A stretch of 64,000 nucleotides of DNA from Candidatus Saccharimonadales bacterium (GCA_035480235.1 DATIHX010000003.1:21514-85513), one strand, 5' to 3'; positions 6,766 through 46,006 are shown, numbered from the stretch's first letter. The notes: generated by a model from the sequence alone, not told the origin. A program made the numbers and translations.

Positions 6766-8378
6766 GGCATCAGTCCTTTTGACCGGCCAACTACCCGAAA
6801 GATATAAACCTCTTCTTGCGGGCTAATATCATCGGTTAATAATTCCAGCGTCTCCGAGCCTTTATAGGTTTCGAGGTTGCTCAAGTTGTTGACGTCGCTG
6901 GTTGGCTGATCAAGCCGGTACTGAAAGTAAACGTACTGCGCCCGGGGAAAAATCCGGGGGATTTCAGTCGGATCGGTAATTTTCAGTTCGTCTTCGGCTG
7001 GGTAGCCAACTAATACCTTCTGATTGTTGAGAAATAACGGCAAATAAATGTCGCCGGGGAAGCTCAGGATGGTTGAGCCAGCCGGTAGGTTAGCGTTCAT
7101 CCAATTAACCACTGCCCGGTCGCCGGCCAGATGATAGACCAGCGGGTTCGGCCGAACCGCTTCGCCGACCCGGGCAAAGAGCGTTAACCAACCGGTCGCA
7201 AAACTCAGAACGATAATCGTGGCGAGTAAAAATCGCGGCAATCGGCGGCTTTGGCAGAAATCAGTGACTGCCTGGATGAAAACCCCGGCGAGTAACGTCA
7301 GCGGGATCGCCAAATCACGCATTAGCCGTGACGGAAAACCCAGATGAGGGTTCCGGGAACCGAGCGCCAAAACCGTCAGCCAAACTAACAGCAGGAGGCT
7401 GACGCGGCCGCGCGGCGAATCGCTTTTTTGCAAGAAATAACCGATCGCCACCGCCAGCCCGCCCAGCCCTAAGTAAACCAAGGACTCACCGAGGGCGTTC
7501 GGGTAGGCGGTAATGTCGAATATTTGATTGGGATCGGCAACTTGGCCGATCAGATGAATAAACGGCCAGCGCCAGTTAATAGCCATAAACATCCGGGCTA
7601 AACTGGCCGCCGAAGTCTCGGTATGGTTAAGGAATAGGCCGCCAATAATCACTGCCGCCGCGTAGGCGCCCAGGCCAATTAATACCAGCTGCCACCAGCG
7701 CCAACCGCGCCGATGTAAAGTAAGTACAAGCTGAATGATTAAGTAAATCGCTAAGAGCGCCACGGCAAAAAGAAACGTTAAATGATGGCTGTAGAGTAAA
7801 ACCAACAAGCTGATCAGCAGCAGGCCGACCGCCCAGCCCTTTCGGCTCGAACCAGAAACGTTTTCTACCGCCATGAGGACTAGCGGCAAAACGGTCGCGC
7901 CGGCCAACACATCCGGGAAGCCGCCGTCGTACAACGTTTGCAGTGGCTGACGAGAAAAAAAGCTAAATAGTATCAGGGCGGTAATCCCGGCCGCCCAACC
8001 GAAGTATTTTTTATTGAAATAATAAAGCGTGACGCCGCCGCTCACTAACAGTAGTGGTCCCAGCCAAGCCATCACCGTGATGCTGCGAGCGTGGGTAATC
8101 AGGGCCAAGCCAGCAATCATCAAATGCCAGACGATATGATAGGTGAACGCTGAACGCCAGTGGCCGGCCAAGATTGAGGTGACGATAATATTATGGTTAA
8201 TCCCGTCGCCGCCGGGAGGGACTTGGTAGCGGTAGATGAGTTGGTTAGCGTAGCTAAAAAGTACCAAGAGACCGAACAGGCTATAGGTAATAATCTTCCT
8301 AATTTTAGCCGGCTTACCGGCTTCGAGGGCGGGAGCGGGCGGGTAAGCAGCGATCGGCAGCGGTGAGGGGAGTTCCAT
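6762..8378 (-). CDS. Large polytopic membrane protein with a C-terminal soluble domain (possible GT-C-type glycosyltransferase)
   Basis: 538 aa, at least 10 hydrophobic segments followed by a roughly 130-aa hydrophilic tail. 4-nt overlap with the GT1 gene. No motif I can name confidently. Confidence 0.45.
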   Translation of the reverse strand: MELPSPLPIAAYPPAPALEAGKPAKIRKIITYSLFGLLVLFSYANQLIYRYQVPPGGDGINHNIIVTSILAGHWRSAFTYHIVWHLMIAGLALITHARSITVMAWLGPLLLVSGGVTLYYFNKKYFGWAAGITALILFSFFSRQPLQTLYDGGFPDVLAGATVLPLVLMAVENVSGSSRKGWAVGLLLISLLVLLYSHHLTFLFAVALLAIYLIIQLVLTLHRRGWRWWQLVLIGLGAYAAAVIIGGLFLNHTETSAASLARMFMAINWRWPFIHLIGQVADPNQIFDITAYPNALGESLVYLGLGGLAVAIGYFLQKSDSPRGRVSLLLLVWLTVLALGSRNPHLGFPSRLMRDLAIPLTLLAGVFIQAVTDFCQSRRLPRFLLATIIVLSFATGWLTLFARVGEAVRPNPLVYHLAGDRAVVNWMNANLPAGSTILSFPGDIYLPLFLNNQKVLVGYPAEDELKITDPTEIPRIFPRAQYVYFQYRLDQPTSDVNNLSNLETYKGSETLELLTDDISPQEEVYIFRVVGRSKGLMP

Positions 8379-8431
8379 GTCTCTCTAGTTTACCGAGGTG
8401 TTCGCGGCCCGTAAACTCGGCGATCGGTCGC

Positions 8432-9439
8432 TTAAGCTAGCTTGGCGCTCCAGCGGCGTTTCTGGGTGATAAGCGAGCGGGCGACAAAGGGCAGCAGCAG
8501 CGTCAGCCAATAGAAAAGCCGAGTCGTTCGGTCGGCCCGACCGCTCCGGATCATAGCTCGATAGATCATTTTCGCTTCGGAGTATCGCCCAACCGAGACG
8601 AAGTAATTGGCGAGACGTTTCCGAAATAAAGTGCGTTCAGTCGCAAAAGCCTCTTTTTCCTCGGCCGTCAGATTCGGCGAAGTGGCGTAGCGCTCAAACA
8701 CGATCTCGGTGTCGCGGCTCGCCCCGACAATCCCGTCTGGACGGTTGGAGATGCTGCTCGGCAGCAGCCGATGATAAACGGTCGGCGTCGACTCGGCCAA
8801 AATATTGTAACGGCCGCTGGCGATCACCCGCAGCGTCAATTCTTTATCGTCGGCGGCGACCAAGCTTTCGTCGATTGGGCCAAACGTGTCGATGACCGCC
8901 CGACGCACGAGCATACACGACGAAGTTAAGAAAAGTGTCCCGGCTAGAGCCAGCTGCCGGAGTTCGGCTTGACCATATTGACTGGCGATCGGCCGATAGG
9001 TTTCGGTTTCATTCGACTGACCAGTTCGGACAACGTAGCCGTTCGAGCCAACCAATCCGATTTTTGGATCGGAGTTAATTAGCTGGACGAGGCGCTCGAG
9101 GTGATCCGGCGTCCACCAGTCGTCGTGATCCATAAAGGCGATCAGCTCGCCGCGACTCCGTTTGATGCCAACGTTCTTACCGACCGATGGTTTGCCGGCG
9201 GCTTTCTCTGGCCGAAAGTAGTCGATCTTGGCCGGGTGACGCTCGGCGAAGTCTTGCGCAATCATTGCACTACCATCGGTGGAGTGGTCGTCGATAATAT
9301 ACAATCGCCAATCGGTGAACGTTTGAGCCAGAATCGAGTTAACCGTTTCCTTGATATACGGCGCGGCGTTGTAGAGCGGAATGATGACGGAGACGGTTTC
9401 GGAGACGGCCATTGGTATAGAGTAGCAGCCCCGAGCCAA
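8432..9439 (-). CDS. Glycosyltransferase family 2
   Basis: VSVIIPLYNAAPYI...IIDDHSTDGS...AFMDHDDWW. An alternative ATG at 9412 is equally possible. Confidence 0.85.
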   Translation of the reverse strand: MARGCYSIPMAVSETVSVIIPLYNAAPYIKETVNSILAQTFTDWRLYIIDDHSTDGSAMIAQDFAERHPAKIDYFRPEKAAGKPSVGKNVGIKRSRGELIAFMDHDDWWTPDHLERLVQLINSDPKIGLVGSNGYVVRTGQSNETETYRPIASQYGQAELRQLALAGTLFLTSSCMLVRRAVIDTFGPIDESLVAADDKELTLRVIASGRYNILAESTPTVYHRLLPSSISNRPDGIVGASRDTEIVFERYATSPNLTAEEKEAFATERTLFRKRLANYFVSVGRYSEAKMIYRAMIRSGRADRTTRLFYWLTLLLPFVARSLITQKRRWSAKLA

Positions 9440-11762: not shown

Positions 11763-13037
11763 TTAAGCCGAGCGGGCTCGCCAGCGCTTGTACCACTGCC
11801 GGCCGAAGTAGGCGGCAAAAGTGACAAGAGCAGCAAAAGCGAGAATAACCAGCGTCAGAAAGCCGATAAATTTGTGGTAAGCGGCCGGGTTTTTGAACGT
11901 CGCCCCGGCGACTTTGACCGAGACGTCCGGTTTGGGGGCGTCGGCCGCGGTAATAATTTTCGCCGTCCCGCCGCTCGCGACCGACAGTTCGACATTGGCA
12001 ACGGTGCTGGGGGCGGTAGCCGTTTTGTCTTTGGTGGCCAGCGCGGTGACCTTATAGAAGCCGGTTGGGATCGGTTGATCAAAAATCACGCTCCAGCTCC
12101 CGTCGGCGGCGATTGGGCTAGTTAATTTTTGCTCGGCCGGGATGGCAGCAGCGGGCGTTAAGGTGAGGATAACGGTGAAATCGGTTAGCCCGGTTGAAGA
12201 GCCACCAATACTAAAACCGCCCAGCGTCCCAGCGGTCAGGTTAGTCTTGAAGCTCGCCAGCTTTTTAACGGTGGTAATCTTTGGGGCTTTGAGGCCGGCG
12301 TCAACGGCAGCAGTCGTCGTGATCTTGAAATGGGTTACCGGCCCCCAGCCGTCGTTGTTGTGACCCTTGATGTGGAAATAATAAACGCCGAGATTCAGGT
12401 TGGGGTAGCTGGCCGTTAGCGCCGTGGTCGTCACAGTTTCGGCCGGGTTAGTGTCGGCCACTTGGTCAAAGGCGACGGCGTAACCGGTGGCGCCGTTGGT
12501 TGGGGCAGTCCAGCTAAACGTCGCAGTCGTCACACCGTAAGCCTGGTTTTGGTCGGGGTTAGTGCTGGAAGTCACCGTCACCGCCCCCGGCACGGTTGGC
12601 GCCCGGTTAACCGTAACGTTCAACGTCCCGCCGCTGGCCGGGATCGAGCTCTCGTTGGACAGCAGCGCGTTACTGACGGTAATTTTGCCGCTGCCCTGAG
12701 CGGTCCCCTTAACCGTTAAGGTGGCGATCGTCAGCGACAATACGGTTTTATTACCGGCCAGCGCCCCGTTGAAGGTTTTATTCGCCCCGGGCGTGCCGAT
12801 CCAAATTAGAGAGGTGTCGTAGCTGACGCCGGTCACGCTGAGGTTACCTGAGACGCCGATCGTCCCGGAGAAAGCGTTAAAGGTCGCACCAGCAGCCACA
12901 ATCTTGACGCTTATAGTCGAACCAGCCGTCACACTTCCCCCGCCGCTCGGGGCGATACTGGCGCCGGCCAAGGCCGCCACCGGCAAAAGGCTGGCTAGCA
13001 CTAGCCCAATCACCGCCAAAAATTTTAGTTTCTTCAT
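11763..13037 (-). CDS. Cell-surface protein: signal peptide, cohesin-like beta domain, FN3-like domain, C-terminal TM anchor
   Basis: Starts MKKLKFLAVIGLVLASLLPVAALA. The N-terminal domain ...GSTISVKIVAAGATFNAFSGTIGVSG...LTIATLTVKGTAQGSGKITVSNA resembles cohesin-type modules. The YYFHIKGHNNDGWGP module follows. A C-terminal hydrophobic helix is followed by a basic tail. Confidence 0.55.
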   Translation of the reverse strand: MKKLKFLAVIGLVLASLLPVAALAGASIAPSGGGSVTAGSTISVKIVAAGATFNAFSGTIGVSGNLSVTGVSYDTSLIWIGTPGANKTFNGALAGNKTVLSLTIATLTVKGTAQGSGKITVSNALLSNESSIPASGGTLNVTVNRAPTVPGAVTVTSSTNPDQNQAYGVTTATFSWTAPTNGATGYAVAFDQVADTNPAETVTTTALTASYPNLNLGVYYFHIKGHNNDGWGPVTHFKITTTAAVDAGLKAPKITTVKKLASFKTNLTAGTLGGFSIGGSSTGLTDFTVILTLTPAAAIPAEQKLTSPIAADGSWSVIFDQPIPTGFYKVTALATKDKTATAPSTVANVELSVASGGTAKIITAADAPKPDVSVKVAGATFKNPAAYHKFIGFLTLVILAFAALVTFAAYFGRQWYKRWRARSA

Positions 13038-13043
13038 CCTGTT

Positions 13044-14207
13044 TTAACTCCCCCAATACTTAGCGAAAATCGAGAGGTCAACCAGATTAACGACGTTGTC
13101 GGTTTCGGGGTTAAAGTTGCTCATCGGGTCACCGGCGTTATTTTGTTGCCAGTTCTTGGCAAAAATCGAGAGGTCAACAACATTAACGCTACCATCTCCA
13201 TTAATATCGCCTAATTTGTGGCGATTTAAAATGATTTGCTTGCTGGCGACGGTCGAGCCGCTGACTTTATAGGCCAGGCTGAGGTCGTTATTGCCGACGT
13301 TCAGCCCTCGATTGCTGATCGTCCACGAAGTGGTGCCGGTGTCGGCGATCAGGCTTGAACCCAAGAAAACTTGGCTGTCGCTCGACTTACTGCCGCTTAA
13401 ACTAACCGAGGCGCTGTAGGTTGGGCCGTTAATGGTGGCGATATCGTTATAGGTGATCACCGCGTCCGGCGTGTAGCCAAAGAATGAATTGAAAATATTG
13501 TAGAAACTCTGATTGCCGGAAATGTGCGGCGTGTAGGCGTACATCACTTTGGTCGGGACGTTAGCGCAAGTGATGCTTTGACCGTCGACGGTAATCGTCA
13601 AACTGGTGCCGACGTAACGGGTGTAAAGGTTGGAAAACTGGTGGGTGGCGTAGGCGATCTGTTGGCCGACGCCGCCGTAATCAATAGCGTTTTGGCGGAT
13701 ACCGGGGTCCGAGCAGCCGCTACCGGAGTTGTAACAGGCGTTAAAACTGTCCGGGTAGCCGTAACCCATCGCCCAGGCGTCGGCCGGGCTGCCCAGAATG
13801 TTCGTTGTCACCGCCGAGCTCTCTTTCTGCAGCGTCGCCAAAATCAGTTGCGGGTTGATGCCGTACTGTTGGGTTTTATTGTAAATCAGTTGCGCTACCG
13901 TCAAGCCGTAAAAGTTTTGCCGGGGATTGCCGGTGTAGGCTTGTTCCACGCTGACGTGGCCGTAAGTGTGTTGGCCGGTCGGGTAGGGGACATCGATAAA
14001 CTGGGGGATGGTGTAGTTGGCGTAGCCGCTGCCCTTCGAGCTTAAGAAGTTGGCGATGTCTCCGGCCGACAAGCTGGCGCTATTGAAGAAAACCGAATTC
14101 GAGATGATATTGCTGGATGAAAAAGCCGCCGCTGGCGTAATCGGACCGATCACCGCAGCGATCAAGCTGACGAGAGCTACCACAAAAAAGCCAAATTTTC
14201 GGCGCAT
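13044..14207 (-). CDS. Secreted putative peptidoglycan hydrolase with C-terminal dockerin repeats
   Basis: Signal peptide. N-terminal region ...LILATLQKESSAV... is lysozyme/transglycosylase-like. The C-terminus has GDINGDGSVNVVDLSIFAKNW plus NLVDLSIFAKYW, an EF-hand-like dockerin duplication. The matching DNA direct repeat is 13063..13082 / 13159..13178 (19/20 identical). Confidence 0.6.
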   Translation of the reverse strand: MRRKFGFFVVALVSLIAAVIGPITPAAAFSSSNIISNSVFFNSASLSAGDIANFLSSKGSGYANYTIPQFIDVPYPTGQHTYGHVSVEQAYTGNPRQNFYGLTVAQLIYNKTQQYGINPQLILATLQKESSAVTTNILGSPADAWAMGYGYPDSFNACYNSGSGCSDPGIRQNAIDYGGVGQQIAYATHQFSNLYTRYVGTSLTITVDGQSITCANVPTKVMYAYTPHISGNQSFYNIFNSFFGYTPDAVITYNDIATINGPTYSASVSLSGSKSSDSQVFLGSSLIADTGTTSWTISNRGLNVGNNDLSLAYKVSGSTVASKQIILNRHKLGDINGDGSVNVVDLSIFAKNWQQNNAGDPMSNFNPETDNVVNLVDLSIFAKYWGS

Positions 14208-16271: not shown

Positions 16272-17795
16272 ATGCCGCAAGACTTACGCAGCGTCGTTCA
16301 GCGCTACGATCGGGCTCAAGAAGAAGAGCAAACGGCGACTTTTGCCGCTCAAAAGGGCCTAAATTATGTAAATTTGGTTAACTACCCGTTTACAGCTGAT
16401 ATCTTAGGCCTGATTCCTGAAGCCACGGCCAGACAGTATCAAATTGCCGCGTTTATGCGGTTAGGCAATGTTGTTCGCGTCGCCTCGACGGATCCAACTC
16501 GGCCCGAGCTAGCAGCGGTGATGAACGAAGTGGGCCAAACTAATAACGTCACCTTCGAACCGCTGGTTTGTTCGTTAACGTCACTCGAATACGCCTTGTC
16601 ACGTTATCCGGTTTTGCTGAAGCCAGCACCAACGGTTGCCGCCTCCACCCAGGCCGAAACTGCCGCCCGGACTTTTGACGAACGACTAGCCACCCTGCAA
16701 GGGTTGAAGGCGGCGATCGAGCAAGTGTCGACCACCGAGCTCTTGGACACGATCGTGGCTGGCGGCTTGGCAATGAACGCCTCGGATGTTCACCTCGAAC
16801 CGATGTTGAACGGCGTGGAGATTCGCTTTCGGATTGATGGCAAACTCCTACCAATCGTCGAAATCCCCGAGAAAAACTACAAATATTTACTGGCCCGAAT
16901 TAAAACGGCCGCAAAAATAAAACTCGATGTCACGGCCGCCGCCGGTGACGGCCGCATGAGCATGACCATTGGCGGCGCGCCACTGGACATCAGGGTTAAT
17001 GCCATTCCCAGCGCTTACGGCCAAACGATCGAGATGCGGCTCCTCACCGCCACTAGTTTTATGACGCTCGACCAATTGGGTTTTAACGAAGAAATTAAGG
17101 CCGCGATTCTCCAAGCCATCCAAAAGCCCCAGGGACTGCTGCTTTTCACCGGCCCGACCGGCTCGGGCAAAACCACCAGCCTCTACGCCGTCTTACAGCT
17201 CTTGAACACTTCGGAGCGAAAAATTATTACCATCGAAGACCCGATCGAGTATAAAATTGCCGGGCTCGAGCAAGTGCAGGTGGAGCCAGCCAGCGGCTTT
17301 GATTTTGCCCAAGCCCTGCGAGCAGTGCTCCGCCAAGACCCGAACATTATCATGGTTGGGGAGATTCGCGACAAAGAAACGGCCGAGATCGCCGTTGACG
17401 CCGCCCTAACCGGCCACCTAGTGCTCTCCACCCTTCACACTAATTCCGCCGCCGCTTCGTTCTCCCGGCTCTTACAAATGGGGGTACCGAAATATCTGTT
17501 GGCCGACGCCATCGCTTTAATTGTCGCTCAACGCTTGGTGCGCAAACTCTGTGATAGCTGCGCCGGTAAAGGCTGCGAGCTCTGCCACCAGACCGGCTTC
17601 CGCGGCCGAGTGTTAATCGCTGAAGATTATTTGCCCGACGCCAAAACGATTGAACTAATCCGCCGCGAAGCGACGGTCAGCGAGTTCGAAACCCAGTTCC
17701 GTGATTCTGGCAACCAAACGCTTTTACAAGACGGGCTGAACAAAGCTGCTTCTGGCATCACCACCGAAACGGAAGTTCGGTCAGTGGTCGGTTAG
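16272..17795 (+). CDS. pilB: GspE/PilB-family secretion/pilus assembly ATPase
   Basis: N-terminal GSPII_E_N-like region, Walker A GPTGSGKTT, IMVGEIRD, His box LVLSTLHTN, tetracysteine CDSCAGKGCELCHQTGFRGR. Confidence 0.85.
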   Translation: MPQDLRSVVQRYDRAQEEEQTATFAAQKGLNYVNLVNYPFTADILGLIPEATARQYQIAAFMRLGNVVRVASTDPTRPELAAVMNEVGQTNNVTFEPLVCSLTSLEYALSRYPVLLKPAPTVAASTQAETAARTFDERLATLQGLKAAIEQVSTTELLDTIVAGGLAMNASDVHLEPMLNGVEIRFRIDGKLLPIVEIPEKNYKYLLARIKTAAKIKLDVTAAAGDGRMSMTIGGAPLDIRVNAIPSAYGQTIEMRLLTATSFMTLDQLGFNEEIKAAILQAIQKPQGLLLFTGPTGSGKTTSLYAVLQLLNTSERKIITIEDPIEYKIAGLEQVQVEPASGFDFAQALRAVLRQDPNIIMVGEIRDKETAEIAVDAALTGHLVLSTLHTNSAAASFSRLLQMGVPKYLLADAIALIVAQRLVRKLCDSCAGKGCELCHQTGFRGRVLIAEDYLPDAKTIELIRREATVSEFETQFRDSGNQTLLQDGLNKAASGITTETEVRSVVG

Positions 17796-17804
17796 AACCC
17801 GGCT

Positions 17805-18161
17805 TTAAGAACCCGGGATCAGTGAGGTACCGACGTAGCGCAGAATAACGTAGGCCACCAGAATAACGATAATACCGATGATGGCGTTAATAATGCCGGT
17901 CCGGGCCTTGGTGGCTTTCTCGGCGTCGCCGCCAGCAGTGATGTATTGGAAGCCAGCGATCAACAGATAAATAAAGGCCGTTAAAGCCGCGATGGTTAAG
18001 AGGATGCCGATAATTGTCCCCACTAGAGTGTTCAGGTTAGTAGTTTTGAGCGGATTCAAAAAGTTGAACTGATCGAGATTGAAGTTGCTGCCGTTGGAAT
18101 TAACCACACCGCCTGTACCAATCTGCGCGTGCGCTCTGCCAATAAAGTTGATGAGATTCAT
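17805..18161 (-). CDS. TrbC/VirB2-like (T4SS pilin family) small membrane protein, paralog a
   Basis: 118 aa with two TM helices flanking YITAGGDAEKATKARTGIINAIIG. SD GGAGGG lies upstream. Confidence 0.7.
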   Translation of the reverse strand: MNLINFIGRAHAQIGTGGVVNSNGSNFNLDQFNFLNPLKTTNLNTLVGTIIGILLTIAALTAFIYLLIAGFQYITAGGDAEKATKARTGIINAIIGIIVILVAYVILRYVGTSLIPGS

Positions 18162-18236
18162 TTAATTATTCCGCCCTCCAAATTTGATTACTTACTTATA
18201 TTGAAAACTATTAGGTTGTTCTGTCAAGCCCTATCG

Positions 18237-18788
18237 TCAATTCGGCAAGCTGGCGCCGCCCTGCAATATCGTGTTGACGATGCTAATGATGGTGTAGGCC
18301 AGTGCCGCTAAAACCAAACCAATAATTGCTTGGGTGATGACTTTTTTGGCTTGGGTGGCCTTGCTGTCGTCGCCGAAAGCAGTGATATAAATAAACGCGC
18401 CGTAGAGCAAGTAAAAGAAGGCCACAACGCTAACAATCAACGCCAAAAAGCTCGTATAGAAACTGATACCGGCGCCCAAACAACTAAAATCGGCGTTTTG
18501 AGCGGCGTCGGCGCTGCGCAAAAACGGCGGCAACAGGCCGTCGGCTTTAAAGACTTCGGCCGGGTTAAATTTGCCGTCGCAAGTAGCGGCCGTCCCGGCT
18601 GGGGTGGTGGAGGTTGAGTTGGTTGTCGCCGGCGCAGCTGGGGCTTTGGTCGAGCTATTACTAGATGTGCCCGACGAGCCGTTTAAAAGTGGGTTATCTT
18701 TAAGGGCGCCCAGATCGGCCCGAGCCGCCATCGGCAATGCTAAAAATACTATCACCGCCAAACTCACGATAAGGTCTTTAATCTTCAT
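18237..18788 (-). CDS. TrbC/VirB2-like pilin paralog b with a Ser/Thr-rich N-terminal extension
   Basis: Signal peptide, S/T/A-rich linker and Cys pair, then YITAFGDDSKATQAKKVITQAIIG between two TM helices. ATGA overlap with the upstream gene. Confidence 0.65.
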   Translation of the reverse strand: MKIKDLIVSLAVIVFLALPMAARADLGALKDNPLLNGSSGTSSNSSTKAPAAPATTNSTSTTPAGTAATCDGKFNPAEVFKADGLLPPFLRSADAAQNADFSCLGAGISFYTSFLALIVSVVAFFYLLYGAFIYITAFGDDSKATQAKKVITQAIIGLVLAALAYTIISIVNTILQGGASLPN

Positions 18789-19756
18789 GGGATAACAAAT
18801 TTTATTTCGAGCGTTGAGCCGTCGCTGCCCGTAAAGGTCACCGTCGCCGACTGGCCGGGCTTACCGCCGCCCAAATATTGGATATTGACGCCTTGCGGTT
18901 CACTGTAGTTATCGGCTGAGAAAATTAGCGTCGTGTCGCTGAGACGCAGGGCGAGACTGCCGGCGATACTAGCTCTTACGGTCACCGTGCCAGTTGGTTG
19001 GTTGTTGAGGGTGACGCCGTACGGGTGGTTGAAACTTTCAGCTCGGTTGGTAATGGTGACGGTGTCGCGGCTGGCGGTATTGTCGGGGTCGGCGATCGAC
19101 AAGCCGTATTTGGCGTCGGCTGGTGCCGTCGGGGCGGTGGTATCAGCTGAGGTGACCAGCGTGCCGTCACTTCGGTAACCGGTGAGCAAACCGTCGGAAT
19201 CGACGCAGCCTTGAGGCGTCTCGGAAACGCAAGGGTTATAGTAGCTACCGTCAGGATTTTGGGTGCCGATTTTTGGGTTGGTGGCTTTAGTATTGCCGTT
19301 GCCGGCTTGAGAACTAGCGCTAGTGCCGGAATTGGAAGTTGTGCCAGCCGTCGAAGCGACCTTCGTTACCCAACCGACGATCGCGTAGGACAAGAGGGCA
19401 ACCACCACCCCAATCAGCGTGTAAAGGATGCTTTTGCGGGCTTTTTCGGCTTTGGCGGCGTCGCCACCGGCGGTGATATACATCATCCCCGCCCAAATCA
19501 GGGCGATAAAAGCGGTTAAGGCTAGAGCGATAAAAATGTCTTTAATTATGGTGACAAAGAGTTGATCAAGCGCGATTGGGTTATTGGGCAGCGTCGGCAC
19601 CGGCTGAACGCCACTGGTCGGCGAGGGAGCTGAGTTGGTTGCCCCACTAACGCCGTTGACTACGCCGCTGCCGACATTGGCTTGGGCTAGAGCGGTCGTG
19701 GCTAGCGTCAGGGCGGCTACTAACGCCACGAAAGCCAGGGTGAGTTTCTTCATCAT
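18785..19756 (-). CDS. TrbC/VirB2-like pilin paralog c fused to a roughly 190-aa C-terminal extracellular domain
   Basis: Signal peptide, pilin core YITAGGDAAKAEKARKSILYTLIG, then an S/T-rich linker and a beta-rich domain (...TVTVRASIAGSLALRLSD...TVTFTGSDGSTLEIKFVIP). Confidence 0.65.
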   Translation of the reverse strand: MMKKLTLAFVALVAALTLATTALAQANVGSGVVNGVSGATNSAPSPTSGVQPVPTLPNNPIALDQLFVTIIKDIFIALALTAFIALIWAGMMYITAGGDAAKAEKARKSILYTLIGVVVALLSYAIVGWVTKVASTAGTTSNSGTSASSQAGNGNTKATNPKIGTQNPDGSYYNPCVSETPQGCVDSDGLLTGYRSDGTLVTSADTTAPTAPADAKYGLSIADPDNTASRDTVTITNRAESFNHPYGVTLNNQPTGTVTVRASIAGSLALRLSDTTLIFSADNYSEPQGVNIQYLGGGKPGQSATVTFTGSDGSTLEIKFVIP

Positions 19757-20079
19757 TGGATTTGAAAGAGCGGTAATAAAACTTTAACTAAAACCAGCAG
19801 CGCGAAACCGATCACCGCGCCGACGATGGTGTCTTTGGCGTCTTTAACTTTGCCGTCATCACCACCGGCCGAGAGGTACTTAAAAGCGCCCCACAACACC
19901 ATGAGGATGGCAAGAGCAAAGGCGATGTTGATGGCTTCGCCGAACAGGGCGACTAAATACGCCGAGAAAGAGCCAAAGCAATGAGTGCCGTGAAGTGCTA
20001 GGCCAACGTAAAACTGTTTATCGGTACAACCAGTTGCGGTGTTTTGAGCGAAGACGGTTGGCACTAATAATTGCCACAT
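19753..20079 (-). CDS. TrbC/VirB2-like pilin paralog d
   Basis: 108 aa. YLSAGGDDGKVKDAKDTIVGAVIG between two hydrophobic helices. Start and stop are coupled to both neighbours. Confidence 0.65.
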   Translation of the reverse strand: MWQLLVPTVFAQNTATGCTDKQFYVGLALHGTHCFGSFSAYLVALFGEAINIAFALAILMVLWGAFKYLSAGGDDGKVKDAKDTIVGAVIGFALLVLVKVLLPLFQIQ

Positions 20080-21449
20080 TACTGACCGCTTAAAAATTGG
20101 GTTTTGAAACGGGCAGCAGCGCTGTCCACGGCGGTTTGAGCCGACTGGCCAGAGTTAATCACTAAATTGATCGTATCTTGTAACACTTGGCTAGTGAACT
20201 GCCATTCCGGGTTGGTAAGCTGTTGAACGGTCGCCAACTCCGGGTAGAAGACTTGATTCTTGGCGATAGCGGCTTGAGCGAGGCTGGTACCGAGCTCGGT
20301 GGTGCCTCGGCTAGCTGCCACGGTCAGCCGACCGGTTTGGTTAATGTAGTCGGCCTGGACATCGATGCCCATCAGAAAACCTAAGTAGTTCCAGGCTAAA
20401 CTGGGGCGCGGACTATTTTTTGCCACCAGGTGGCTCCAGGTTACCCCGTAATCGACGCGGTCGATGCCGGGCGTCACCTTCGGCTGAACTAACGGCGCCA
20501 CCCCGATGGTGAAACTGGGGTTTTTATTGACTATTTGCTGGAGAGTTGAGGAATATCCGATCAAGGCGTCGGTTTTTTGGTTCAAGAAAGCGGTCACGGG
20601 GTCGCCGAGGTTAGTTGTCCAAGAAAAGTTCGAGGCGCCGGGCGTGGCGAAGCTGGTGTAAAAACTCAGCGCCTCGATGGCCGGCAGGCTGGTAAGGCCG
20701 GCGTTAACCTTCGGCAAATTAAAGGCAACGCTCTGGTTATCGCTGCTTAAAATGCTAGTAACGCCGTTTTGGACCAGAAAGGCGCCGAGCACATCGCTCG
20801 GGTTAGCGGTATTGGCGGTCGTCCCCAGCGCCAGCGCTGAACGGCTAACAATGCCGTTTTTACTCTGGCTGAAAATAGCGATTTGGTTTTTCAAATCGTC
20901 CCAAGTGGTCGGGAATTTTTGCGACAAAGCCAGCTGGGCGCCACTGAGGCTACTTTGCCACTCGGCTAGGAGGGTTGTGTTGTAGATGATCGCCAGATCG
21001 TCACCGAAGAGCGGCACGCCGTAGAGTTGTTTGTTGAAGGTATTTAAATCGACGACGGCCGGGATGATGGTTTGTTTGGCGGCCTTAACCGCGTCGGTTT
21101 GGCCGGTGACGATGGCCGGCTGGCTTTTGTCGGCGTGCTTGGGCAACCAGTCGCTGCGCACCAACCAGATGTCCGGACCCGTGCCGTTAGCAATCGCGTT
21201 GACCACTTGGGCTTCGTAATCTTTGGCGTCGGTCGCTTGAACGTATTTAAAATCGAGCGTCACCGTTGGGTTAGCGGCCAGCCAGGCTTGGCTAATTTTT
21301 TGGTAAACCTGGCCCTCGTCGAACGGCGACCAAATAGTGAGGGTTGCCTTGGTTGGCGCTACGGTTTTATTGCGACCCAGCAGCAGCACAACCGCCACTA
21401 TAATAATCACCACGCCTGCACCAATACCAATCCAAACCCCTCGCTTCAT
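20079..21449 (-). CDS. Extracellular solute-binding protein (ABC sugar-binding family 1-like), N-terminal TM anchor
   Basis: 456 aa. KATLTIWSPFDEGQVY...GTGPDIWLVRSDWLPK pattern. First gene of the pilin operon. No permease or ATPase genes are adjacent. Confidence 0.7.
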   Translation of the reverse strand: MKRGVWIGIGAGVVIIIVAVVLLLGRNKTVAPTKATLTIWSPFDEGQVYQKISQAWLAANPTVTLDFKYVQATDAKDYEAQVVNAIANGTGPDIWLVRSDWLPKHADKSQPAIVTGQTDAVKAAKQTIIPAVVDLNTFNKQLYGVPLFGDDLAIIYNTTLLAEWQSSLSGAQLALSQKFPTTWDDLKNQIAIFSQSKNGIVSRSALALGTTANTANPSDVLGAFLVQNGVTSILSSDNQSVAFNLPKVNAGLTSLPAIEALSFYTSFATPGASNFSWTTNLGDPVTAFLNQKTDALIGYSSTLQQIVNKNPSFTIGVAPLVQPKVTPGIDRVDYGVTWSHLVAKNSPRPSLAWNYLGFLMGIDVQADYINQTGRLTVAASRGTTELGTSLAQAAIAKNQVFYPELATVQQLTNPEWQFTSQVLQDTINLVINSGQSAQTAVDSAAARFKTQFLSGQ

Positions 21450-21546: not shown

Positions 21547-21894
21547 ATGATTGATATTGAGGTTCTGCGTCAGCAGATTGCAGAAGAGACTGTGGCACTC
21601 ACCACTAAAAAGGAGTTGCTCTCGACCAGAATCTTGCGTCAGATTCCGCCGCGGTTGCAGCCGCTTTTCCGAAATCATCCGAGTATCTTGAACGACCTGC
21701 TCGTCCATGGCTCCGGTAGTAGCTTTATCGGGATACAGACCCGCCAAAAGTGCGGCTATAAAACTTTTGATGGCCTATACCGAGCCGTTAAGAAGATGGT
21801 GCCAACCGTCTTCGGTGCCAAGGCTAAAGTACTTGGCCACCAGTGGCTAACAGGAAAAGATCGGATGTACTTGGCGATTTCGGTGGAGGAATAG
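21547..21894 (+). CDS. Hypothetical protein
   Basis: ATG preceded by AAAAGGAG and followed by a strong terminator. No family recognised. Confidence 0.55.
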   Translation: MIDIEVLRQQIAEETVALTTKKELLSTRILRQIPPRLQPLFRNHPSILNDLLVHGSGSSFIGIQTRQKCGYKTFDGLYRAVKKMVPTVFGAKAKVLGHQWLTGKDRMYLAISVEE

Positions 21895-21955: not shown

Positions 21956-22336
21956 TTACTCCACCGCCACTTTCAAAACGCGGGTTTTGGTTTTTTCTTG
22001 CTTCGGAATCCGGATCGTGAGGATGCCGTTACGCAAAGAGGCGTCGGCTTTAGCGGCGTCAACCGAGACTGGCAAAATATAGCTGCGCATAAACGAGCCC
22101 CAGTAACACTCTTGCACAAAGTAGCCGGAGCGATCCATTTCGGCTTCGTTGCGACGGGTGCCTTTCACGGTGACGACTTCGTCGGTAATGGAAATCTCTA
22201 AGTCTTCCACGCTCACCCCGGCGATCGGGGCCTTAATAATGACGTTCTCGTCGTCTTGGTAGGCATCGATGGCCAACTGGCCTTCTTCTTCCTCGTCCAA
22301 CCACTCTTGTGTTTGTAGCTCTTCTTTTTTCGCCAT
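21956..22336 (-). CDS. Hsp20/alpha-crystallin small heat-shock protein
   Basis: 126 aa. ...VIIKAPIAGVSVEDLEISITDEVVTVKGTR...ASLRNGILTIRIPK. Confidence 0.85.
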   Translation of the reverse strand: MAKKEELQTQEWLDEEEEGQLAIDAYQDDENVIIKAPIAGVSVEDLEISITDEVVTVKGTRRNEAEMDRSGYFVQECYWGSFMRSYILPVSVDAAKADASLRNGILTIRIPKQEKTKTRVLKVAVE

Positions 22337-23124: not shown

Positions 23125-23207
23125 GGAGGGTTGGCAGAATGGTTAATGCACCAGTCTTGAAAACTGGCGGGCGAAAGCCCTTGTAGGTTCGAGCCCTACA
23201 CCCTCCG
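23125..23207 (+). tRNA. tRNA-Ser (anticodon TGA)
   Basis: GGAGGGT...CCAGT-CTTGAAA-ACTGG...variable arm GGGC-GAAA-GCCC...GTAGGTTCGAGCCCTAC...ACCCTCC-G. Confidence 0.85.
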
Positions 23208-23220
23208 CAATTATTAATAG

Positions 23221-23249
23221 TTGACACGGTTGCCCCTACCGTCAATAAT
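23221..23249 (+). promoter_or_regulatory. Sigma-70-type promoter (TTGACA, 17-nt spacer, AATAAT), probably giving a leaderless transcript
   Basis: TTGACA at 23221..23226, -10 at 23244..23249. The ATG at 23256 follows 6 nt later with no SD. Confidence 0.55.
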
Positions 23250-23255
23250 TAAGTT

Positions 23256-23624
23256 ATGAGGACAACCCAAAGAAAGGGAGATATCGCAGTCTCTCAAGCA
23301 ATTGCCACATTCACAAAGTTGGGTCACGATGTTTCACTCCCTATGACTGAATCGGCCGCCTATGATCTTATTGTGGATGTTGGAGGAAAGCTTCAACGAC
23401 TTCAAGTGAGATATACTAGCGCGAACGAGGTTGACCTAAGGAGGGTTCATTCTAACTCTAAAGGTTACGTTGTTAAGAAAACTAAGCCTCAAGCCTATGA
23501 TTGGCTCTACATCCTAAAGAATACTGGGGAGGAATATTTAATCACCAGCTGCCTAATAGGTCGGCGATCAATTGTTCCCAACCCTATAAATCTACTAAAT
23601 AAAGAGGTAAAATTAGTCAGTTAG
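23256..23624 (+). CDS. Small PD-(D/E)XK endonuclease-like protein (group-I-intron-associated endonuclease family-like)
   Basis: 122 aa. RKGDIAVSQAIATFTKLGHDVSLPM...YDLIVD...RLQVRY pattern matches my recollection of this family. The last motif has R where K is usual. Confidence 0.55.
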   Translation: MRTTQRKGDIAVSQAIATFTKLGHDVSLPMTESAAYDLIVDVGGKLQRLQVRYTSANEVDLRRVHSNSKGYVVKKTKPQAYDWLYILKNTGEEYLITSCLIGRRSIVPNPINLLNKEVKLVS

Positions 23625-23627
23625 TGC

Positions 23628-23700
23628 GCGCCCGTAGCTCAGCGGATAGAGCGTTCGGTTGCGGTCCGAAAGGTCGCTGGTTCGATTCCAGCCGGGCGCA
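23628..23700 (+). tRNA. tRNA-Arg (anticodon GCG)
   Basis: GCGCCCG-TA-GCTCAGCGGATAGAGC-G-TTCGG-TTGCGGT-CCGAA...GCTGGTTCGATTCCAGC-CGGGCGC-A. Confidence 0.85.
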
Positions 23701-23722
23701 CGAAGTGGTTTGATTTTTATTA

Positions 23723-23814
23723 GCGCCCGTAGCTCAGTGGATCAAATCAGGTTTTTGTCCCCTGCGCCACTGGCACTCAGCCAGTTATTGTTTGCCTACG
23801 CTAGTGTAGGCCTC
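23723..23814 (+). pseudogene. Truncated tRNA-Arg 5' copy (23 nt) plus a unique tail
   Basis: Starts GCGCCCGTAGCTCAGTGGATCAA, then hairpin GGA(T)CAAA-TCAGGTT-TTTGTCC. No T-arm or 3' acceptor strand. Further hairpins: ACTGGC/GCCAGT and CCTAC/GTAGG. Confidence 0.5.
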
Positions 23815-23896
23815 GCGCCCGTAGCTCAGTGGATCAAGTTGGTAATCCTTGTCCCCTTCGCTCCGTTCGCTGCATTGTTCGCTTCGCTCACAATTT
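23815..23896 (+). pseudogene. Truncated tRNA-Arg 5' copy (23 nt) plus a unique tail
   Basis: Starts GCGCCCGTAGCTCAGTGGATCAA, then hairpin GGA(T)CAAG-TTGGTAATC-CTTGTCC, which carries a compensatory change relative to the previous copy. The tail contains four TTCGCT motifs. Confidence 0.5.
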
Positions 23897-23969
23897 GCGC
23901 CCGTAGCTCAGTGGATAGAGTATTGGTTTCCGGAACCAAGGGTCGGTGGTTCGAGTCCACCCGGGCGCA
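23897..23969 (+). tRNA. tRNA-Arg (anticodon CCG)
   Basis: GCGCCCG-TA-GCTCAGTGGATAGAGT-A-TTGGT-TTCCGGA-ACCAA...GGTGGTTCGAGTCCACC-CGGGCGC-A. Confidence 0.9.
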
Positions 23970-24125
23970 CAAAAAGAGAATCTCTAACCTGATCCCATTT
24001 CGCGAAGCAATAGCGGAGCGAATGTAAATGTAAAATACATTTCTCATGTGAGAGGGCCCGTAGAGTTAGTTTTCCTAAACGTCGTTATCGGCGCAAATAA
24101 CATAGCGTGCGCGCAACAAAATTTG

Positions 24126-30358: not shown

Positions 30359-30643
30359 ATGGAAAAACTTGGTGATTATTTACCAGTTCATCGCCACGGC
30401 ATGTTGGGGCGGATATTCTTGGCCAAACAACTAACCGACGCCGTTCAAGCGCTAGTCCCGGGCGAGTTAAAAGTGGTGATTCGGGCTAAAACCATTACCC
30501 TTAATTGCGCCGAACCGGCCTACGCCAAACGGCTGACGCTGGAACGGCGCAAACTCGAAGCCATCCTCACCCGACTAGCCGGCCAGGGTCATAACTTGAC
30601 GCTGAAAATTCGCACTCACGGCCCGGGAACTACTGATCGCTAA
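30359..30643 (+). CDS. DUF721/DciA-like protein
   Basis: 94 aa in the position after recF that is typical for DUF721. ...VIRAKTITLNCAEPAYAKRLTLERRKL... Confidence 0.6.
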   Translation: MEKLGDYLPVHRHGMLGRIFLAKQLTDAVQALVPGELKVVIRAKTITLNCAEPAYAKRLTLERRKLEAILTRLAGQGHNLTLKIRTHGPGTTDR

Positions 30644-31208
30644 TGAGGAGGGTGGTCTTGGGATCGGCCTGGGCGGTGGCTAAATAGGCCCGGGCGTCGG
30701 TGATCGCTTGGTTATGCTCGGCCTGGTAAGTAGTATTGTCGGTGGACGAGCTTCGGTGATAGATGGTGAGGTTAACGGCTAAAAGCGTGGTTAAGTCGGA
30801 GGAGAACTGGCCCTCGACCCGATAGGTAGCGGTGATGTGAGGGAAAAAGGCCAGCATTGGGTTTTCGGCGGCGCCGCGCGCGCCTGGTAGCTCGCTTTCC
30901 TGAACGTGAACTACTAGCTGCCGGGTAACGAGCGGCCAGATGAAAATTTGCTCATGATCTAAATCGGCTAATAAATCTTTGGGGGCGACGACTAGGCGAT
31001 GATGGCCGGCGTGAAACTTCAGGGTGACCGGCGTGGAGTGACCAGTTTTAAAGTTATCAGCGTCGCTGGTAACTGTGGCCCCGGCTTTCAGGCCGCTATC
31101 AGCGATGGCGGTCACGGTCACACTACCTGGAAAAAATAAGAAAATCAGGACAATAACGACAGCGCCGATGCCGGCCAGGAGCAGGTAGAATTTCAGTTGG
31201 TTTGTCAT
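30630..31208 (-). CDS. Membrane-anchored hypothetical protein (last gene of the T4SS-like operon)
   Basis: 192 aa with an N-terminal TM helix (FYLLLAGIGAVVIVLIFLFF). 1-nt gap to the upstream amidase gene. Confidence 0.5.
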   Translation of the reverse strand: MTNQLKFYLLLAGIGAVVIVLIFLFFPGSVTVTAIADSGLKAGATVTSDADNFKTGHSTPVTLKFHAGHHRLVVAPKDLLADLDHEQIFIWPLVTRQLVVHVQESELPGARGAAENPMLAFFPHITATYRVEGQFSSDLTTLLAVNLTIYHRSSSTDNTTYQAEHNQAITDARAYLATAQADPKTTLLISDQ

Positions 31209-31209
31209 T

Positions 31210-32343
31210 TTAGTGGAGGGCTATCACAACTTCGTTTAAAAAGCGGGTGCCGGGGTCAGAGCGGTGATTTTGGCCGGTCCGTCGGTCGGCCTCTTTATGG
31301 GAAATCACGTTGAACGGTTCCTTGGCCCCCTTATTGCTGGCCAGGATTGTCACGTTGTCTTTGCTGATATTATATTTACCCATCAAGCACTGTACCAGGT
31401 TTATGTTAGCAGTTATTTGAGCCGGCGTTTCCCACTTGTTGGAATCGGAGCTCTCAAAATCGCCTTGGTTTTCAATGCTAATTGAGGTCGCGCCACTACC
31501 ATAGTCTTGGCTGGGCTGGTTATACATGGCAGCGCCGTGGGCAATTTTATTATCAGCCTCATATTGGACGACTTGGCCGGAGTGAAAAACTTCGTACTGA
31601 ACGTCGACGTCCCGGTCGTTGTTATTAAAGTAGTTATATTCGTTATCAATACTGTTCTCATCGGCAGTGTAGTGAAGAATAATCACCTTTGGTGTGCCGG
31701 TGCCGCGGCTTTGGTAGGAAGATTTGGTGAGTATCTTGGGAGTGACGTTCGGGCAAGTCCCGGTGGGTTGCCCGCCCCCGATTATCAAAGTCACATGGGG
31801 GTTTTTCCAGCCGGCTAGAACCTGGCAATCAACAGCTATATCGACATGGTTATAGCCGGCGCCTTGTTTTGACTGAGCGAACGTATCAACAAGCCGGAAT
31901 TCAATCGGTCCATCACTGTTGTACATTTTTTCGAGTTCCGGGATGCGAACGGTAGTGCCGTATGAGTACTGTTTAAAGATGGATTCGTCGATGGCGATGG
32001 AGACGTACGGCGCCTTCTTGGCGATGAAATCAGGCAGAACTTGGACTTTACTGCCCTTCATGTCTTGAGAGCCGCCACCGGTCGGGTCGCAATTCTGACC
32101 CTGCTCATCCTCTTTCCACTTCGGCACGTAAGCAGTGGCTAAGACGTCTGTGATGGTGGTGCCGCCGCTGCCAGTGGCTTTGGCAACGGGCCCGAAATGA
32201 AGCGTGCCAATCAGGATAAACGGCAACGTCAGTGAGAAGATGAAAATCAGCAGCGCCGCAGCGACGACAAAAATAGTCCAGGAGGCGCCCCTTCGCTTCC
32301 CAAGTTTTTTGGGGAACGGCAAGCTGGAAACGGGCAACGGCAT
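31210..32343 (-). CDS. Membrane-anchored peptidoglycan hydrolase: 3D/RlpA-like domain plus N-acetylmuramoyl-L-alanine amidase (Amidase_2)
   Basis: N-terminal TM helix. ...YGTTVRIPELE...FRLVDTF...HVDIAVD resembles a 3D/double-psi barrel. The C-terminal part has VIILHYTA...SISIENQG...ISHKEADRRTGQNHRSDPG. Confidence 0.65.
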   Translation of the reverse strand: MPLPVSSLPFPKKLGKRRGASWTIFVVAAALLIFIFSLTLPFILIGTLHFGPVAKATGSGGTTITDVLATAYVPKWKEDEQGQNCDPTGGGSQDMKGSKVQVLPDFIAKKAPYVSIAIDESIFKQYSYGTTVRIPELEKMYNSDGPIEFRLVDTFAQSKQGAGYNHVDIAVDCQVLAGWKNPHVTLIIGGGQPTGTCPNVTPKILTKSSYQSRGTGTPKVIILHYTADENSIDNEYNYFNNNDRDVDVQYEVFHSGQVVQYEADNKIAHGAAMYNQPSQDYGSGATSISIENQGDFESSDSNKWETPAQITANINLVQCLMGKYNISKDNVTILASNKGAKEPFNVISHKEADRRTGQNHRSDPGTRFLNEVVIALH

Positions 32344-45858: not shown

Positions 45859-46006
45859 ACTTTCAGCATACCAGTCGGCGGCGGGGTCGCAATTCCGTTC
45901 AGGTTGACGCAAAACAGCAACGATTTTTTGGCCCTAAAACTAGTGACAAATCGGTGAATTTGTGGTATGGTTGGGGCAATCCAAATTTGTCGGGAGGAAC
46001 GTTAAC

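Follow-up and report, generated by a model that had tools for sequence, protein, structure and literature searches.

A solute-binding protein gene leads arrays of type IV secretion pilin paralogs across Patescibacteria

Why does the gene for a solute-binding protein (SBP) stand at the head of a pilin operon? The question is raised by a 64,000-nucleotide stretch of the genome of an ultrasmall Candidatus Saccharimonadales bacterium (GCA_035480235.1, DATIHX010000003.1:21514-85513), here called the window, in which both the open reading frame (ORF) list and the sequence give a minus-strand chain of five genes, an SBP gene followed by those of four small pilins. A first-pass annotation, made from the sequence alone, had described this operon, held an SBP as its lead cistron to be a non-standard arrangement, and proposed that the protein may act as a receptor or tip factor of the pilus apparatus or couple nutrient capture to it. 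Here, we ask how widely the SBP gene and the pilin genes travel together, which pilin the SBP is tied to, and what the SBP might do at the head of the array.

At all seven metagenome loci with SBP homologs 26 to 56% identical to that of the window (7/7), the SBP gene is followed by 3 to 6 pilin genes. With one genome scanned for each GTDB species, at least 580 relatives of the SBP were recovered, and the best 80 were used, with labels including Saccharibacteria, Doudna-, Falkow-, Uhr-, Azam- and Parcubacteria, Microgenomates, and Paceibacterota. Pilins were called on six-frame ORFs with a hidden Markov model (HMM) validated by Pfam, and the count covered the 73 loci whose downstream sequence extended for 400 bp or more. 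A same-strand pilin ORF starts no more than 700 bp after the SBP stop codon in 71/73 of these species genomes, with a median gap of 26 nucleotides (nt), and the SBP-led arrays hold 1 to 8 pilins, most often 4. The result is not circular, because the loci were picked by SBP similarity alone. Such recurrence in independent species genomes places the arrangement far beyond chance, and the pairing of SBP and pilins is strongly conserved across Patescibacteria; the linkage on which the first-pass idea depended is therefore present in relatives. The family also has a boundary, since the two most distant SBP homologs (23 to 24% identity) adjoin VanW and have no pilins. In four loci (L064, labelled Falkowbacteria, and L072, L073, and L079), the SBP gene is followed by one pilin gene, a gap of about 4.5 to 5 kb, and then 6 to 7 pilin genes.

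The upstream neighbor of the SBP gene varies. It is an Hsp20 gene in a Saccharimonadia-like group and differs elsewhere: outside that group (L022-L089), the same-strand gene just 5' of the SBP gene encodes a GalU/RmlA-type NTP_transferase in 32/60 loci, a methyltransferase in 14/60, and a Mg-chelatase/ComM-like ATPase in 8/60. Because the upstream neighbor changes with lineage, it is the SBP-pilin junction on which selection acts. Does the dependence also run in the other direction? Among pilin arrays on metagenome contigs, picked by a motif of the pilin-4 type, 10 of the 36 with enough upstream sequence carry an SBP gene (about 28%). The other 26 have none within 9 kb, nor does any consistent substitute lead gene take its place in these SBP-less arrays, in which the upstream genes are heterogeneous and mostly on the opposite strand. 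The SBP thus depends on the pilins and not the reverse, and it is therefore an accessory rather than a core part.

The pilin encoded next to the SBP stands apart from the others. A pair of cysteines (Cys) precedes the first transmembrane helix in 65/92 first pilins, versus 24% of pilins in SBP-less arrays; the consensus motif of first pilins is LVPCG...C..D, and the pair in pilin 1 of the window, C18 and C34, likewise lies before that helix. In a held-out test, a pilin was taken as subclass-like if the first-pilin HMM scored it at least 5 bits better than an HMM of the other positions. This holds for 33/46 first pilins, for 0/151 pilins at positions 2 to 8 of SBP-led arrays, and for 3/306 pilins of SBP-less arrays, two of these three being at contig edges, where an SBP gene may have been cut off. 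Judged by these profiles, pilin 1 represents a distinct Cys-pair subclass that almost never occurs without an SBP. SBP and pilin 1 behave as a two-gene module placed before an otherwise generic array, and in the window the two are translationally fused. In some genomes (L008 at 8377-8991, L018, L039, and L060), the first ORF after the SBP gene fuses at least two pilin domains, combining, for example, domains of the pilin-1 and pilin-2 types.

The junctions of the window operon agree base for base with the coordinates first given for the five chained genes. The SBP stop codon and the pilin-1 start codon form a TAATG in which nucleotide 20079 is common to both, and ATGA overlaps of 4 nt join pilin 1 to pilin 2 (19753-19756) and pilin 2 to pilin 3 (18785-18788), all as the first-pass annotation had read them. 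A recognizable Shine-Dalgarno sequence is absent from all three overlapped genes, and since they have none of their own, coupling by termination and reinitiation fits them. A spacer is found only before pilin 4 (Table 1), and the last pilin gene is preceded by a similar one in four homologous loci (L001, L002, L003, and L008). A promoter scan of this strand found no consensus promoter inside the operon. An internal promoter before pilin 4 was considered, given a TTGACA hexamer at 18227-18222, and was rejected for want of a consensus site in the scan; a separate ribosome-binding site alone is claimed.

What kind of protein leads the array? The window SBP is identical to the NCBI entry 'hypothetical protein VLE93_00260' from a Candidatus Saccharimonadales metagenome-assembled genome, encoded on a 395-kb contig, and by itself it has no Pfam match at E ≤ 0.1. 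Its family is more informative: many of 99 homologs match PF01547/PF13416 (SBP_bac_1/SBP_bac_8), and a profile of 26 family members matches sugar-binding proteins of ATP-binding cassette (ABC) importers in the PDB, down to 4e-30. An AlphaFold2 model of the window protein reaches a predicted local distance difference test score (pLDDT) of 91.6, and its top Foldseek matches are oligosaccharide SBPs (probability 1.0, TM-score up to 0.70-0.80), including Atu4361, Xanthomonas MalE, GacH, and sophoro-oligosaccharide and cellodextrin binders. As modelled, the SBP has a real oligosaccharide-binding fold of the CUT1/MalE type, with the two lobes of type II.

The N-terminal anchor reported for the SBP is indeed there, as the transmembrane segment MKRGVWIGIGAGVVIIIVAVVLLL, and a lipobox cysteine is absent. 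Close homologs share MKRG followed by a transmembrane anchor, and distant homologs carry a lipoprotein lipobox at the same place, so that attachment at the membrane's outer face is conserved by two means. Across 82 family members, P92, D93, W101, D150, N157, G209, Q227, F267, W277, and F288 are invariant. W101 and D150 align with R66 and E111 of Escherichia coli MalE, both of which contact maltose, in a profile alignment at about 17% identity obtained with hmmsearch; this was used in place of a mafft --keeplength mapping, which was discarded with its numbering shifted and its C-terminal half unaligned. The pattern of conserved residues suggests that the SBP retains a carbohydrate-type site.

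Is the SBP then simply the receptor of an ABC importer? It might deliver a host-derived oligosaccharide to a distant CUT1 permease and ATPase, with the shared transcript co-expressing capture with host contact. The fold and the profile matches to transport SBPs would follow naturally from such a role, as would the conserved cleft residues, and in Gram-positive bacteria it is common for an SBP gene to stand alone, with its permease encoded at a distance. However, no importer accompanies the SBP at these loci. Pfam searches of the large ORFs of the window find no BPD_transp_1 and no ABC_tran above the cut-off, with one sub-threshold match on a PilB-like ATPase, and a six-frame motif scan of the 64 kb finds neither an EAA permease motif nor an LSGGQ signature, in line with the earlier remark that no permease or ATPase gene is nearby. 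A permease with an EAA motif is likewise absent within 7 to 9 kb of the SBP in 90 homologous loci (0/90). Nine ABC-ATPase-like ORFs of 615 to 1,096 amino acids (aa) occur in the flanks of those loci, and the size of the eight that exceed 900 aa suggests that these are UvrA-like. Moreover, a published table of ten Patescibacterium (ABY1) genomes lists an SBP of orthology group K02027 in nine of them, with no K02025/K02026 permease and no sugar ATPase. Co-regulation alone would leave unexplained both the 97% adjacency to pilins beside varying upstream neighbors and the pilin subclass bound to the SBP. The SBP is thus likely an orphan, and we consider it unlikely that it is an ordinary importer receptor. 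Automatic annotation labels SBP homologs 'multiple sugar' or 'glycerol-3-phosphate' transport SBPs, and at least one metabolic reconstruction inferred a sugar transporter from the SBP alone; the genomic context speaks against reading such SBPs as sugar transporters. Orphan binding proteins may be a broader theme in the phylum. Southlakia epibionticum ML1 has an essential OppA-like SBP, SEML1_0634, and PF00528 occurs once in the supplementary annotation tables for S. epibionticum, on an amino-acid ABC permease.

The explanation that we prefer, at a probability of roughly one half, is that the pilin module of the Patescibacteria type IV secretion system (T4SS) has been supplemented with SBP and pilin 1 as an accessory pair, in which the SBP is probably a glycan receptor that docks onto the pilus system. 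We infer a pilus-linked receptor from the co-translation, the near-obligate adjacency, the exclusive partner pilin, the intact fold, the tether, and the lack of a local transporter. The pilin module itself comprises three minor VirB2-like pilins that are coupled in translation and conserved by position, together with the separately initiated pilin 4. The SBP, serving no local ABC importer, would act as a carbohydrate-binding receptor on the outer face of the membrane and would dock to the pilus system, at its tip or base, through the Cys-loop pilin 1. One oligosaccharide could serve as its ligand throughout the phylum, such as a glycan derived from the cell wall at the site of host contact, and recognition of this ligand would localize, trigger, or feed the T4SS or pilus. 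The receptor or tip factor proposed in the first-pass annotation is an interpretation of the same kind, consistent with the special first pilin of the SBP.

Several points weigh against the pilus-linked receptor. The conserved cleft suits an ordinary transport receptor equally well. The importer negatives of the window cover 64 kb of the 395-kb contig, and a CUT1 permease and ATPase may lie at a distance; the published table assigns K02027 by orthology group, whose members may be SBPs other than the pilin-linked subfamily. The MalE mapping used a MalE sequence of which only the ligand positions were index-checked, and its usable positions are those of the N-lobe. According to reviews, pilus formation by these pilins is only a possibility and has been shown in no Patescibacterium. 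Finally, S. epibionticum, in which no PF01547/PF13416 protein was found, has pilins and a T4SS that are essential without an SBP of this type, so the SBP is not core to the machine.

Does the SBP need a small-molecule ligand at all? A repurposed SBP fold could work as an extracytoplasmic chaperone or assembly factor for pilin 1 or for the pilin pool. Its translational coupling to pilin 1, its exclusive co-occurrence with the pilin-1 subclass, and a membrane tether like that of the pilin pool would suit this role, and elsewhere conjugative pilins depend on maturation factors of their own, TraQ/TraX in the case of F-pilin. Yet most arrays do without an SBP, the essential S. epibionticum array included, and a two-lobe fold with acidic and aromatic cleft residues kept over deep divergence is more typical of ligand binding, so that a pilin chaperone seems improbable. 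A further alternative makes the T4SS itself the importer: SBP and the Cys-pair pilin 1 would be the capture device for a host-derived glycan or glycoconjugate that enters through the VirB2-like pilus and VirB6 channel, with no ABC permease needed. SBPs are a hallmark of importers, and no permease is seen. Reviews call the function of the Patescibacteria T4SS 'completely unknown', a role in nutrient or nucleotide acquisition has been proposed, and McLean et al. (2020), who noted a 'secreted array' earlier, hypothesized nutrient translocation. A hand-over from an SBP to a T4SS is without precedent, however, and about 70% of arrays lack the SBP, which leaves import of this kind quite improbable.

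How much of this is new? Divergent pilin arrays are already known in the phylum, and only the SBP part is new. No SBP-pilin link in Patescibacteria was found in the literature searched, where the array papers and a 2025 T4SS review make no mention of an SBP, and as far as that literature shows, the conserved lead module of SBP and pilin 1 is undescribed. The first-pass view of the operon as non-standard therefore stands insofar as the link had gone undescribed, but not as a claim of exception, because the arrangement recurs within Patescibacteria. In the sole genetically tractable Patescibacterium, epibiotic growth requires the T4SS and its pilin array, yet their function is the one called completely unknown. 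With its conserved cleft and its tie to pilins in many lineages, the SBP offers a concrete biochemical entry point to it, and its ligand and partner would help show whether the system recognizes, senses, or imports from the host. The absence of the SBP from the laboratory model may explain why the link went unnoticed.

Are the four small proteins pilins of the T4SS type? All of them exceed the gathering score of PF18895 (T4SS_pilin), 26.6 bits (Table 1), and 128/129 pilin ORFs from SBP-led arrays match this family. The link to TrbC/VirB2 (PF04956) is looser. At E ≤ 0.01 it is found for 51/129 of the ORFs from SBP-led arrays (best, 5e-9), and S. epibionticum pilin paralogs match it too; pilin 4 is the only window pilin to do so, below threshold (E = 0.088; 13.5 bits versus a cut-off of 27.9). 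An hhalign comparison of the array pilin profile with Agrobacterium VirB2 gave no match. The pilin profile also had no significant match in the PDB, so no sequence link to solved conjugative pilins was found. On these profile comparisons, the relation to TrbC/VirB2 is weak for single proteins and holds at the level of the family, and in this form the first-pass identification as VirB2/TrbC-like pilins is supported. The common motif that it pointed out, Y(I/L)(T/S)A(G/F)GD..K...A(K/R)..I...(I/L)IG, is present in all four proteins between two hydrophobic helices, giving a layout of first transmembrane helix, (A/F)GGD..K loop, and second transmembrane helix, behind leaders with a predicted A-x-A↓Q-type end as read from the sequence. 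A conserved site of the type (R/K)-x-(Y/H/F)-A↓Q closes the leaders of the window pilins (17805-20079) and of those in L001-L008. In pilins 1 and 4 the leader comprises just about 11 to 13 residues and has little of a hydrophobic core, unusual features in Sec signal peptides.

The four paralogs of the window share 19 to 29% identity in their cores. The core of pilin 1 is 78% identical to that of the first pilin of L001 and 49% identical in another genome, and that of pilin 4 is 66, 64, 49, and 52% identical to the last pilin of L001, L002, L003, and L008, respectively. Because each array position has its own conserved ortholog, distinct structural roles are indicated rather than recent duplication or antigenic variation, and the paralogs are old. 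Pilin 2 has a Sec signal peptide, the pilin hairpin, a Ser/Thr-rich linker, and a C-terminal immunoglobulin (Ig)-like β-sandwich. Its AlphaFold2 model is poor overall (pLDDT 58), since there are only 3 homologs, and only the C-terminal β domain is trusted: helices at 63-95 and 100-139 are of low confidence, and the all-β C-terminal ~100 aa have a pLDDT of 80 to 90. Foldseek relates this domain to Ig-like accessory domains, PapD/ASH/MSP-like ones among them; no Pfam match covers the C-terminal 192 aa, and pilin 2 is a candidate adhesive minor pilin. Pilin 3 combines a signal peptide, a Ser/Thr/Pro-rich N-terminal extension, a conserved LLPPFLRSAD motif that is kept in the positional orthologs of L001 and L002, and a hairpin with YITAFGD. 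Pilin 4 is probably the major subunit: no other paralog is as conserved, and none of the other three has a ribosome-binding site of its own.

Table 1. Coordinates of the SBP-led pilin operon and of other features in the window
Feature	Position	Strand	Remarks
SBP, lead cistron	20079-21449	-	456 aa; ORF; membrane-anchored, predicted CUT1/MalE type
Pilin 1	19753-20079	-	108 aa; PF18895, 40.1 bits; SBP-associated Cys-pair subclass
Pilin 2	18785-19756	-	323 aa; PF18895, 30.8 bits; ATGA overlap with pilin 1
Pilin 3	18237-18788	-	183 aa; PF18895, 34.6 bits; ATGA overlap with pilin 2
Spacer, sole intergenic gap of the operon	18162-18236	-	75 nt; GGAGG site before pilin 4
Pilin 4	17805-18161	-	118 aa; PF18895, 42.0 bits; own Shine-Dalgarno sequence
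PilB/GspE-type ATPase	16272-17795	+	PF00437, 6e-115; converges on pilin 4, stops ~10 nt apart
Hsp20 small heat-shock protein	21956-22336	-	PF00011, 2e-19; 506 nt upstream of SBP
dnaA	26418-27830		~5 kb from the pilin operon
Gram-positive-type T4SS core cluster	30630-45912	-	Far side of dnaA; Pfam
Amidase	31210-32343	-	Pfam
C39-like hydrolase	36758-38089	-	Pfam
VirB4-like TraG P-loop ATPase	38089-40704	-	Pfam
PrgI/VirB3-like protein	40664-41269	-	Pfam
1471-aa and 800-aa proteins	within 30630-45912	-	T4SS core cluster, which includes large proteins without Pfam match

The window spans the replication origin region, with rnpA, yidD, and yidC and then dnaA, dnaN, and recF. The pilin array lies about 9 to 17 kb from the T4SS core, with dnaA between them, and is not fused to the core cluster; the VirB6-like 800-aa protein of that cluster has relatives at six other pilin-array loci by phmmer. 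No VirB4 was found within 8 to 9 kb on either side of SBP-led arrays. The VirB4-like gene of the window is about 17 kb from the SBP gene, and because it lies beyond flanks of that size, the result should not be taken to mean that SBP-led arrays lack linkage to a T4SS. On the other side of the operon, a PilB/GspE-type ATPase gene holds the same position in 26 loci of the Saccharimonadia type and is absent at SBP loci of other classes; the machinery to which this ATPase belongs is that of type IV pili or type II secretion rather than the T4SS. A bindosome-like display, in which an SBP with a prepilin-type signal would be assembled by the neighboring PilB-type ATPase as in Sulfolobus, is largely refuted and very improbable: the MKRG-hydrophobic N terminus of the SBP superficially resembles a class III signal and the PilB-like ATPase gene is convergent next door, but such a signal is rejected because distant homologs carry a lipobox in place of the anchor. 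Against the display itself, no PilB gene is nearby at the SBP-pilin loci of other classes, and the adjacent small proteins are pilins of the T4SS type, not type IV pilins.

The Hsp20 gene lies directly 5' of the SBP gene in L001, L002, L003, L006, and L008, overlapping the SBP start by 4 nt in L006, and 36 loci, some of them SBP-less, have it within the flanks of a pilin array. It also adjoins the essential S. epibionticum pilin array, where Hsp20 itself is essential. Hsp20 may be a cytoplasmic holdase for hydrophobic pilins. In the window, a 115-aa ORF (21547-21894, plus strand) with a good GGAG ribosome-binding site and no Pfam match lies between the Hsp20 and SBP genes; homologous loci have 40 to 85 nt there, so this ORF looks like a lineage-specific insertion that splits Hsp20 from the operon. 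Farther away, an ORF for a PD-(D/E)XK endonuclease (PF11645; 23256-23624) sits inside a tRNA cluster (23125-23970), flanked by tRNA genes Ser-TGA (23125), Arg-GCG (23628), and Arg-CCG (23897). At 11763-14207 on the minus strand are two adjacent surface proteins with Fn3 (sub-threshold) and dockerin domains, domain types that also occur in putative adhesins reported to be essential in S. epibionticum.

How does the locus compare with known systems? With the SBPs of CUT1 importers (E. coli MalE, Xanthomonas MalE 3UOR, Atu4361 4QRZ, and Thermococcus litoralis TMBP 1EU8), the window SBP shares the two-lobe fold, the GPD(I/V)W and P.TW.E motifs, acidic and aromatic residues at MalE ligand positions, and a membrane tether as in monoderm bacteria. 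It differs in being only 15 to 21% identical to them, in having no local permease or ATPase, and in its near-obligate adjacency to pilins; the two BPD_transp_1 genes plus an ABC ATPase that define a CUT1 importer are found neither in the 64-kb window nor at the 90 loci. PrgZ/TraC of enterococcal conjugative plasmids are family-5 (OppA-like) peptide binders, encoded in a regulatory region, that feed the chromosomal Opp permease. They resemble the present case in that an SBP without a permease of its own is encoded with a Gram-positive-type T4SS element. Unlike them, the window SBP matches family-1 sugar binders only, by profile and by fold, and heads a pilin operon. In Agrobacterium, the sugar-binding SBP ChvE is functionally coupled to a T4SS, signaling via the sensor kinase VirA, and also serves an ABC transporter; here, by contrast, there is no kinase, and the SBP is linked to pilins rather than to regulators. 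In the bindosome of Sulfolobus, sugar-binding proteins with a class III signal peptide are assembled by a type IV pilus-like system with the BasEF ATPase and platform. Both cases place sugar-binding proteins with pilus-type machinery at the surface, whereas the SBPs described here have a transmembrane anchor or a lipobox and their partners are T4SS-type pilins.

The closest comparison is with the pilin arrays already described in Patescibacteria. Quinonero-Coronel (2025) reported 441 such arrays in 383 assemblies, each with 2 to 11 divergent VirB2-like paralogs of 25% mean identity, as tandem PF18895 genes that are chromosomal and often near dnaA. Wang (2023) found the six-gene array of S. epibionticum (SEML1_0014-0019), which adjoins Hsp20 and ComF as here, to be essential in transposon sequencing. 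The window array fits the definition, with four tandem genes 19 to 29% identical and dnaA 5 kb off. It shares with those arrays PF18895, tandem divergent paralogs, a place near the origin, an Hsp20/ComF neighbor, and an MPF-FATA-like core without relaxase, and the context typical of TrbC/VirB2 pilins is found in the same window, with VirB4-like and PrgI/VirB3-like genes and those of wall hydrolases at 30.6-45.9 kb. Unlike the published arrays, it is set apart from the T4SS core and is led by an SBP and its special first pilin.

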